Source of the DNA: Candidatus Bathyarchaeia archaeon
GTDB taxonomy: Archaea; Thermoproteota; Bathyarchaeia; Bathyarchaeales; Bathycorpusculaceae
NCBI GenBank assembly: GCA_038883655.1
Contig: JAVZLQ010000002.1
Span: 217,625-281,624 of the forward strand
Length of the DNA stretch: 64,000 nucleotides
Direction of reading: 5' to 3'
Position 1 is the first letter of the stretch. Each line of letters starts with the position of its first letter. Below, one piece after another: positions 10,846 to 10,979 of this stretch. Both the position numbers and the translations under genes were made by a program. A model generated the notes under the pieces. The model saw only the letters and a program-made list of their open reading frames with translations. It was not told the origin of the DNA and made no database searches.

Positions 10846-10905
10846 CTAGATAGGCCATTCGAACCAGAATGTTACTCGTACAGGCTTTACTTTTTTCTTT
10901 TTCAA
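10846..10905 (-). CDS. Putative 19-aa precursor peptide MKKKKVKPVRVTFWFEWPI
   Basis: TTG start, purine-rich SD-like GAGGGGAAAGGA, upstream TTTTTAAG TATA-like box, stop 2 nt from convergent prenyltransferase stop; too short for ORF track. Confidence 0.6.
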   Translation of the reverse strand: MKKKKVKPVRVTFWFEWPI

Positions 10906-10979
10906 GTCCTTTCCCCTCGACAACTGTATTTATGTTCAACATTTAAGCTTAAAAAGCTTGCGATAACTGAACGCTGAAT

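Follow-up and report, generated by a model that had tools for sequence, protein, structure and literature searches.

A micro-gene convergent on a divergent isoprenyl diphosphate synthase paralogue in Bathyarchaeia: a candidate archaeal peptide-prenylation system

In the CaaX route of eukaryotes the prenyltransferase acts first and the Rce1 protease follows; yeast a-factor is exported by a transporter. Prenylation of peptides by enzymes of the isoprenyl diphosphate synthase fold is, as far as is known, a bacterial affair: ComQ, ChrPC and PalQ, the cases given in the accessible part of PMC13290415, all target Trp, and StheQ of Sphaerobacter is a further Trp-targeting enzyme (preprint 10.64898/2026.08.29.745113, in the part available). 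The position of the modified Trp in Bacillus subtilis ComX168 is given in the available text of PMC13731918, and that of PMC10853753 describes PalQ/PalX of Paenibacillus alvei, a C-terminal Trp prenyltransferase and its substrate that came out of genome mining and AlphaFold. For the archaeal CPBP/Rce1-like proteases, targets are listed as unknown in the accessible part of PMC9263693. The locus discussed here is archaeal. It lies in a stretch of 64,000 nucleotides (the window) from a Candidatus Bathyarchaeia archaeon (assembly GCA_038883655.1, contig JAVZLQ010000002.1, positions 217,625 to 281,624 of the forward strand), and its centre is a 19-codon open reading frame (the micro-ORF) that converges on the gene of a divergent trans-isoprenyl diphosphate synthase (trans-IDS) paralogue, with genes for an MFS transporter and two PadR-family regulators as neighbours (Table 1). 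The literature searched (Creative Commons papers in PubMed Central, and bioRxiv) held no archaeal case of such prenylation and no mention of these peptides.

The micro-ORF (10846-10905, minus strand) is very probably a real, translated gene, to judge from its codons and its setting. The best reading of its product, a tentative one that may well prove wrong, is as precursor and substrate of the neighbouring enzyme: the peptide would be prenylated, exported by the MFS protein and controlled by the PadR proteins, with processing by a CPBP protease in a second class of the system. In its working the system would resemble ComQ/ComX and PalQ/PalX; to the ComQ family itself it does not belong.

The micro-ORF runs from a TTG (10905-10903), translated as M in MKKKKVKPVRVTFWFEWPI, to a TAG (10848-10846) within the 136-nt gap that separates the synthase paralogue on one side from the MFS gene on the other; two bases (10844-10845) lie between this stop and the synthase TAA (10841-10843). 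An in-frame TTG farther upstream, at 10923, offers an alternative product of 25 aa. A sequence-only reading of the window had pointed to this minus-strand frame with its TTG start and the 2-nt spacing of the convergent stops, to a purine run before the TTG (GAGGGGAAAGGAC at 10918-10906), to an AAGCTT-AAA-AAGCTT palindrome (10945-10959) and to a Trp third from the end of the peptide (Trp17), and the sequence of 10846-10960 agrees with it on each of these points of the window. The Lys codons are, on the other strand, an oligo-T tract (10889..10902). Oligo-T has a known part in archaeal transcription termination, and the tract is a possible terminator of the synthase transcript; because of that part it may be dual-purpose, Lys codons and terminator at once. 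One contig of library X2 spans 10731-11123 with no difference, which attests to presence only (X1 and X2 are probably DNA). In the roughly 12% of RNA run X3 that the analysis covered, 0 reads matched, a share too small to speak on expression. As for RNA genes and other signals, a search for RNA families over the entire window found tRNA-Gln only, the single Rfam match was at chance level (E 0.77) and outside the locus, and a scan for sigma-70 promoters and hairpin terminators, with models unsuited to an archaeal host, stayed at the level of shuffled sequence.

How widespread is the frame? At E <= 1e-40 the paralogue turns up in 108 of the 201 genomes sampled in the order. Eighty-one loci were collected, as best-scoring matches plus lists read by eye; they are mutually related and no random sample, and one of them (L008) stops inside the synthase gene, leaving n = 80 for all counts of peptides and enzymes. 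A strict rule for the peptide asks for at least two K/R in the six residues preceding P-[VILMA]-[KR] and at most 14 residues from there to the stop, on the strand opposite to the synthase; its ATG version asks in addition for an ATG at most 20 codons upstream. A frame obeying the strict rule is found in 57 of the 80 loci, on the opposite strand and ending within tens of bases of the synthase stop. With the ATG, the count is 53/80 on the minus strand vs 0/80 on the plus strand and 0/80 in reversed sequence; fifty dinucleotide shuffles gave a mean of 0.26/80 and a maximum of 2. The remaining 23 loci, read by eye, hold 15 variants (PTR, PPR, PSR, PNR, LIR, VVR, IAR and others), one doubtful case and seven without a peptide. 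A small gene stands beside the enzyme gene, convergent on it, in about 72 of the 80; its stop falls anywhere from 31 nt inside the synthase ORF to 59 nt past the synthase stop, with an outlier at +79 (L052).

These peptides of 12-22 residues have a common form: Met, a basic or polar N-terminal part of 4-15 residues, a near-invariant P-[VIM]-R, and a hypervariable tail. The tail after Arg has 3-9 residues, most commonly four, and is distinct in 55 of the 57 strict-rule peptides; Trp occurs in 38 of the 57 tails, and Trp, Tyr or Phe in 51. The leader/core pattern that had been proposed from the window alone thus recurs in the family at large, the N-terminal part conserved and the tail hypervariable. 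Its ComX-like detail fares worse: where the window peptide has its third-from-last Trp, the closest relative, L002, has Gly (VTVWFGGPL), and six of the 57 tails hold no aromatic residue at all; the Trp conserved between the window and L002 is W14. The gene had also been taken for one that normal annotation passes over. This is borne out: seven exact look-ups in a collection of 15 billion proteins found no match to the peptides, and NCBIfam gave 0 matches at E up to 10 for eight peptides of 20-31 aa, which places them outside the precursor families described there for peptides made by the ribosome and modified after translation (RiPPs). One locus of the same order, L041, carries two identical tandem copies of the peptide gene.

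Read from its codons, the peptide is clearly kept by selection as a protein. Pro and Arg are themselves fixed by construction, because the 57 loci were selected by the P-x-R rule; the synonymous spread remains free, and it is considerable: CCA 33, CCT 12, CCC 8 and CCG 4 for Pro (n = 57), and CGA 22, AGA 16, AGG 8, CGT 7, CGG 3 and CGC 1 for Arg (n = 57), that is, 33 CGN and 24 AGR codons. The start codon is ATG in 52 of the 57, TTG in four (the window, L002, L024, L081) and GTG in one. A match of at least 4 nt to AGGAGGTGATC is found in the 16 nt preceding the start in 43/57 peptides vs 91/584 other ATGs of the region, and one of at least 5 nt in 19/57 vs 13/584. Compared with L002, whose synthase is 76% identical, the micro-ORF of the window is free of indels, and a 1-nt indel lies just upstream; the changes from window to L002 are a conservative V to I twice in the N-terminal part, F to V, E to G, W to G and I to L in the tail, and a different stop codon. 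The sequence-only reading had named synonymous-biased conservation at syntenic loci as a check and disruption of the frame in close relatives as grounds for refutation. The former is there, in the Pro/Arg codon spread and in the frame-specific synonymous excess described below; the latter is not seen in L002; and the purine-rich ribosome site and TATA-like palindrome that it had described are kept in relatives.

(Two other frames at the locus were tried and rejected. A plus-strand ORF of 25 aa at 10869-10946, on the synthase strand as comX is on that of comQ, is broken by stops in L002. A minus-strand ORF of 45 aa at 10805-10942, and the ATG in the operator as the start, fare no better: in L002 the ATG is in the peptide frame by way of the 1-nt indel, giving 31 aa, and in the window it is in another frame. 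Because its frame relative to the peptide differs between the two, the operator ATG is no conserved start.)

A second class of the system is found farther afield. Searched with a profile of the paralogue (A1), 44 of 301 genomes from across the phylum prove to carry it, families outside the class included (16 of 25 genomes in one of them, f24). At 13 of 20 distant loci a peptide of 13-17 residues, MK-x-Y-[NS]-P-T-[PASM]-[VI]-R-[LFI]-W-..., occupies the equivalent position and strand; Trp is present in 13 of the 13. Among nine distinct DNA versions, the variable sites number 5, 4 and 11 of 13 at codon positions 1, 2 and 3, and the pairwise synonymous:non-synonymous ratio is 136:112 in the peptide frame, as against 32:196, 30:220, 29:219, 104:146 and 6:222 in the other five frames. 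The peptide is present in all 11 distant loci that have an MFS gene and in none of the seven that lack one; two more peptide-bearing loci reach a contig end. Tandem pairs of peptide genes occur in five second-class loci (L094, L096, L100, L101, L102). In L094, compared by eye, the duplicated stretch, ribosome site included, is identical between the copies. No PadR gene lies near the second-class loci. In L099, L107, L108 and L109 a CTGTAT...ATACAG palindrome and a TATA-like box precede the peptide gene; because the palindrome is present without a nearby PadR gene, the regulator of the second class may be encoded elsewhere or the palindrome otherwise used.

Twelve second-class loci share another gene. 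It encodes a membrane protein and stands immediately upstream of the paralogue, in the same orientation. EExxxR, FxxxH and HxxxN are invariant in its product; in that order they are the motif triad of CPBP proteases. Eight of the 12 proteins match PF02517 (Rce1-like; best E 1.1e-8), and the ESM Atlas gave 0.96, 0.95 and 0.95 to PF02517-bearing archaeal clusters, one of them named 'CAAX protease self-immunity'. The first member on its own had no Pfam match, and a profile search of PDB sequences with the CPBP alignment found 0 matches. By motifs and PF02517, the gene would encode a CPBP/Rce1-like intramembrane protease. A search of five second-class genomes for the AmoA family found no match; its controls gave none either.

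What kind of enzyme is it that the micro-gene faces? The AlphaFold2 model of the paralogue has a mean predicted local distance difference test (pLDDT) score of 93.8 and an all-alpha trans-IDS fold; Foldseek aligns it to the geranylgeranyl diphosphate (GGPP) synthase 1WY0 with a template modelling (TM) score of 0.83. It is not the housekeeping enzyme. The source genome (G000; archaeal, 1.42 Mb, 19 contigs) encodes on contig C3 a separate housekeeping synthase of 357 aa with all motifs of the isopentenyl diphosphate (IPP) site, which matches the paralogue only at about 1e-13. A scan of genome contigs with the single protein yielded one locus only (L021). No NCBIfam equivalog cut-off was reached: the best of 15 families, all below, was IdsA with 106.9 bits vs 468. 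When the 80 paralogues are aligned to the housekeeping synthase of G000, the first Asp-rich motif, DDxxD, which serves the Mg-bound prenyl donor, is present in 80/80 (DDIID in the window), as is the last Asp of the second (DDFID in the window), whose first position is D in 39, E in 29, N in 9 and others in 3, and whose second is E in 44 and D in 36. Arg immediately precedes the second motif in 68/80. GGKRxR, RRG, FQ and the GK loop are the basic, IPP-holding motifs of chain-elongating trans-isoprenyl diphosphate synthases. In the paralogues, the Lys of GGKRxR is lost in 80/80 (D in 53, N in 9, E in 7 and others), RRG has become K-x in 79/80, the Gln of FQ is found in 0/80, and the GK...GK loop is deleted in 80/80. 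The lost IPP-holding residues and the retained Asp-rich motifs together suggest a prenyl-donor site without the usual acceptor site. Fold searches with the enzyme model return the generic synthase fold only and do not separate the readings discussed below. (Tandem pairs of the paralogue are seen at G030:C13:75590-77633 and G057:C31:22705-24748, and genome G094 has four profile matches.)

The MFS gene keeps company with enzyme and peptide alike. It follows the synthase gene in 77 of the 81 loci. Five near-complete relatives are without the paralogue. From four of them the MFS gene is missing as well; in G071 the MFS and radical SAM genes are both there, with neither paralogue nor peptide upstream. 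In the window, the right operator site is overlapped by the first ATG of the MFS gene (10980), and the frame that this ATG opens carries a stop in L002, so that translation probably begins at the ATG at 11043, behind a 5' leader of about 60 nt.

The locus can now be set beside its closest described counterparts. With ComQ/ComX of Bacillus and StheQ/StheX it may share a small gene product with a variable and often, if not always, Trp-bearing C-terminal end, and a proposed logic of modification followed by export. The differences are many. The precursors there have 55-73 aa (preprint 10.64898/2026.08.29.745113, in the part available), as against 12-22 here; comX lies directly downstream of comQ on the same strand, whereas the micro-gene is convergent on the enzyme gene; where those systems have the ComP/ComA two-component system, PadR-family genes are found here; the hosts here are archaea; and six of the 57 tails here have no aromatic residue. 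The second motif of the enzyme is an acidic D/E-D/E-x-x-D here, and a Gln one turn upstream of it is found in 0/80. With PalQ/PalX, too, there are likenesses (as described in the accessible part of PMC10853753): PalQ is likewise an isoprenoid-synthase superfamily enzyme remote from the named subfamilies, its substrate Trp is at or near the C-terminus, Arg residues precede the core (PalX DNVRRFFW), and a predicted enzyme-peptide complex served as a lead. In the same text, the leader of PalX is a long NHLP one, its neighbour is a histidine kinase, and PalQ requires a terminal Trp; here the aromatic residue is usually not the last of the tail, and only 4-15 residues make up the N-terminal part. 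The archaeal GGPP synthase 1WY0, finally, is the best match of the paralogue in sequence (E 8e-21) as well as fold and shares both Asp-rich motifs, unlike in that all 80 paralogues have lost the GGKRxR Lys/Arg, RRG, FQ and the GK loop.

The promoter region merits separate consideration. A pair of inverted sites, CTGTAT-N4-GTT(C/G)AACA and TGTT(C/G)AAC-N4-ATACAG, is separated by 15-23 nt with a TATA-like centre (CTTATAAG, TTTATAAG or CTTAAAAG), and each operator site is part of a palindrome of about 27 bp. Both sites score at least 11/14 in 27 of 77 loci, where the arrangement spans 51-59 bp in 26 and 43 bp in the 27th; in these 27, the start codon of the peptide lies mostly 10-19 nt outside the outer edge. 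The left site of the window is perfect (10924-10941, 14/14), and the whole 64 kb holds only three operator matches of at least 12/14, this one at 10924 and two overlapping ones at 9272-9298, between the two PadR genes. The PadR proteins score 71.6 and 69.1 bits with PF03551 (cut-off 27). From this layout we infer a two-way promoter under PadR control that would serve the peptide gene on one side and the MFS gene on the other. Pyrococcus furiosus offers a parallel: its promoters in which a TATA box is framed by two B recognition elements (BRE-TATA-BRE) have one TATA and two starts 49-50 bp apart, and archaeal two-way promoters often yield antisense RNA (both from the accessible part of PMC6640164). 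The likeness is in the symmetric TATA midway between divergent starts about 50 bp apart, to be set against inverted sites spanning 51-59 bp here. It ends with the second transcript, which the accessible part of the same paper regards as non-functional antisense and which here would be that of a conserved coding micro-gene, and with the operator palindromes that cover both sides here. Between the window and L002, the promoter/operator is the best conserved stretch.

(A side observation on the regulators: summed contig depth over the PadR genes and their operator, 8957-9584, is 44-241 in X1 and X2 vs about 0-12 where the synthase, peptide and MFS genes lie, and the X1/X2 contigs show many differences there and in both cases a loose end at 9553. 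Other organisms in the sample that have related PadR genes are the probable source of the high depth; if the libraries are RNA, stronger expression could be.)

Taken together, these elements suggest the following scheme. One symmetric TATA, flanked by PadR-type operators, would drive two genes in opposite directions, that of the peptide to the left and that of the MFS protein to the right, and the PadR proteins would repress both promoters plus their own. The synthase paralogue would use its intact Asp-rich motifs to bind an allylic prenyl diphosphate and, having no IPP site, move the prenyl group to the peptide, the likeliest acceptor being the aromatic residue after the conserved Arg; the conserved N-terminal part of the peptide would be the element of recognition, of cleavage, or of both. 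In the second class, the Rce1-like CPBP protease encoded directly upstream of the enzyme would trim the peptide. The MFS protein would then export a small lipopeptide, a signal or an antagonist. The pattern expected of a RiPP-like leader and core is present: a conserved P-x-R with a basic part before it, a variable tail, and neighbours suited to tailoring, to export and, in the second class, to processing.

A prediction of the complex between enzyme and peptide, made from an alignment of 79 rows for the enzyme and one of 56 rows for the peptide, gave interface scores (ipSAE) of 0.47, 0.50 and 0.54 vs 0.17, 0.02 and 0.00 for the controls, and was graded 'weak support'; agreement in contacts among the runs was at least 43% and the partner pLDDT at least 53. 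In a calibration with chains of 30 residues and longer, 58 of the 80 solved complexes attain the ipSAE mark, and so do 2 of the 110 mismatched pairs; at ipSAE <= 0.60 just 7 of the 80 solved complexes do, along with both mismatches.

Several points weigh against the peptide as a substrate of the enzyme: 1) The score band just described is more often wrong than right unless the pairing is likely beforehand. 2) Peptide gene and enzyme gene converge and are not co-transcribed. 3) For a RiPP leader, an N-terminal part of this length is very short, and its richness in Lys is due in part to the oligo-T on the other strand. 4) The six tails without an aromatic residue (AGP, LRAI, ALPP, TLPP, VLP, IAP) mean that a Trp/Tyr acceptor cannot be universal. 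5) The enzyme is not of the ComQ type. The pseudo second motif N-D-x-x-D that characterizes ComQ (StheQ preprint 10.64898/2026.08.29.745113, in the part available) is absent in the window and found in 9/80 overall. A Gln located one turn ahead of the second motif is the determinant of Trp recognition in ComQ, PalQ and Ord1-type enzymes according to the accessible part of PMC13290415; it is replaced in 80/80 (T23, I23, S10, A5, G4 and others). 6) The closest protein is an ordinary GGPP synthase, 1WY0; the indole prenyltransferase Ord1 follows at about 1e-11 and at Foldseek ranks 49-50. An enzyme without an IPP site might just as well be a terpene synthase, making a product for the MFS protein to export and for PadR to sense. 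7) The Bathyarchaeia module contains no protease gene, and the PF02517 genes of G000 are on another contig only. 8) Transcription, translation and prenylation are predictions. Points 2, 4, 5 and 8 weigh the most.

What if the peptide is not modified at all? It might act on membranes, as a short cationic peptide rich in Trp and Arg that serves as an antimicrobial or modulates the MFS protein, and be co-regulated with the transporter, the synthase making a lipid or terpene of its own and the CPBP protein conferring immunity, as Abi/CPBP proteins do in bacteriocin loci. This is the best of the alternatives, if on balance an unlikely one. It accommodates all the evidence for a real gene, a promoter that is common to the peptide and MFS genes and not to the enzyme gene, an enzyme without the ComQ-type Gln, and the 'self-immunity' in the name of the ESM Atlas cluster; MRKKLPIRFWWR and MRKKAKIPVRLWWR seem akin to Trp/Arg-rich antimicrobial peptides. 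Left without explanation are the constant position of the peptide, at the 3' end of the synthase paralogue in both classes, and its absence where the paralogue lacks an MFS neighbour and also in the single locus with MFS gene and no paralogue. The second-class peptides (MKNYNPTPVRLWVPG) are barely cationic; an enzyme deprived of its ordinary substrate site needs another acceptor; and the complex prediction, for what it suggests, is weakly positive.

A more specific proposal, and a rather improbable one, is that of an archaeal pathway resembling the CaaX route from end to end: a trans-IDS enzyme lacking its IPP site prenylates the residue after the invariant Arg (or the Arg itself), the CPBP protease trims the product, the MFS protein exports it, and PadR senses it. 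By analogy the second-class module holds the parts: genes for a putative prenyl-enzyme, an Rce1-like CPBP protease, a short peptide (e.g., R-L-W-VPG) and an exporter. The differences from the CaaX route are that the acceptor would be an aromatic residue or Arg in place of Cys, and the enzyme fold that of a trans-IDS in place of the alpha/beta CaaX transferase; no methyltransferase is seen in the second-class module, and in Bathyarchaeia the module comes without the protease gene.

Could the micro-ORF be a regulatory device, its transcript acting as antisense to the 3' end of the synthase gene, or its translation tuning synthase and PadR, with a peptide that has no function itself? The synthase and peptide transcripts must meet, because the micro-ORF stop is so near to the end of the synthase gene, or inside it; both predicted start sites lie under the operator; and the antisense RNA often given by archaeal two-way promoters, as the accessible part of PMC6640164 has it, would be in character. 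The signature of amino acid selection makes this improbable: Pro and Arg codons spread synonymously, CGN/AGR switches included, third positions are favoured and the synonymous excess is specific to the frame. The start codon and ribosome site are also conserved, and tandem duplicates of the peptide gene are hard to fit to a pure antisense role.

It is distinctly improbable, too, that the peptide is a small subunit or regulator of the synthase paralogue, its Arg and tail entering the vacant IPP site as an on/off switch, for example. The idea has its attractions: an invariant Arg in the peptide, precisely the basic residues of the IPP site lost in the enzyme, strict co-occurrence of the two genes, and a complex prediction that leans weakly its way (0.50 vs 0.17). 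A hypervariable tail (55 distinct in 57) would be unusual in a structural subunit, the MFS and CPBP neighbours would be left unaccounted for, and we know of no precedent for a subunit of 12-22 residues in a trans-prenyl synthase. That there is no gene, the conserved letters being synthase terminator (the oligo-T whose reverse complement supplies the Lys codons) and MFS promoter/operator (the best conserved stretch between the window and L002) with the open frame as a by-product, is very improbable in the face of 53/80 loci vs 0.26/80 in shuffles, a codon-position bias of 5/4/11 with frame-specific synonymous excess, CGN/AGR switching at the Arg, a retained ATG and Shine-Dalgarno match, and second-class peptides that are not rich in Lys and are conserved in amino acids all the same.

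If the peptide is indeed a prenylated substrate of its neighbour, the system would be a widespread RiPP-like one of archaea, with a new subfamily of peptide-lipidating enzymes and a candidate cell-to-cell signal in uncultured Bathyarchaeia. If the CaaX-like pathway were to prove true, the signal would be the first prenylated peptide signal from archaea, its tails strain-specific as pherotypes are, and the second-class peptide the first natural substrate of a prokaryotic Rce1-like protease; the second-class peptide is a testable candidate for a natural substrate of archaeal CPBP/Rce1-like proteases. Two further consequences are independent of what the peptide does: a gene family of 12-22 codons can be recovered by synteny and codon evidence alone, and a two-way archaeal TATA would be able to serve two coding genes.

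Table 1. Features of the micro-gene locus and its surroundings, numbered from the first letter of the window
Feature	Position	Strand	Remarks
291-aa ORF	6510..7385	-	proline-rich N-terminus, one hydrophobic helix, many N-x-T/S sites; no Pfam family (best E 0.056)
Second PadR-family regulator	8827..9255	-	PF03551 E 3.4e-19; divergent from the first; tblastn matches in 35 loci
27-bp palindrome CTGTATTTTTGTTGTACACGGATACAA between the two PadR genes	9272..9298		12/14 on each strand; operator-like motif
PadR-family regulator	9442..9807	+	PF03551 E 5.5e-20; 4 bases upstream of the synthase gene; tblastn matches in 44 loci
Divergent trans-isoprenyl diphosphate synthase paralogue, 343 aa	9812..10843	+	PF00348 E 2.8e-23; proposed peptide prenyltransferase
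Micro-ORF, 19 codons + stop, TTG start	10846..10905	-	MKKKKVKPVRVTFWFEWPI; basic N-terminal part, conserved P-V-R, aromatic tail
Oligo-T tract	10889..10902	+	reverse complement of the Lys codons of the micro-ORF
Purine-rich Shine-Dalgarno-like stretch GAGGGGAAAGGAC	10906..10918	-	immediately 5' of the TTG start
Operator-like palindromic site CTGTATTTATGTTCAACA	10924..10950		14/14 to consensus CTGTAT-N4-GTTCAACA; inner arm enters the TATA region
TATA-like element in AAGCTT-AAA-AAGCTT	10942..10959		proposed shared TATA: peptide gene leftwards, MFS gene rightwards
Degenerate right-hand inverted site AACTGAACGCTGAATATG	10965..10982		compared with the consensus by eye; weak in the window, clear in relatives
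MFS transporter, proposed exporter	10980..12269	+	PF07690 E 4.7e-13
Radical SAM/SPASM gene	12306..13427	+	TIGR04084 312.9 bits vs cut-off 225
Tyrosine integrase	13451..14587	-	beside the radical SAM gene

The order of genes in the window is PadR (-), PadR (+), synthase (+), the gap with the micro-ORF, MFS (+), radical SAM/SPASM (+) and tyrosine integrase (-). The radical SAM gene lies directly downstream of the MFS gene in the window and in 23 other loci (L001, which ends earlier, is unscored), and was considered as a core part of the module. It was rejected as such. It is a single-copy gene in 101 of the 201 genomes of the order, syntenic with the module in family f1 and located elsewhere in f6 and f7; genomes that lack the paralogue can have it too (e.g., G027, G029, G033, G034, G071 and G086); and its identity across the order is 57-77%, vs 31-49% for the synthase paralogue. 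Farther to the left, the product of the ORF at 6510-7385 looks like a secreted or surface protein, to go by its composition. At the other end, within 13449-13452, the X1/X2 contigs break (loose ends at 13450 and 13452) or have extra letters (at 13449 and 13451), as if an element with an integrase gene had its edge, a variable junction, here.

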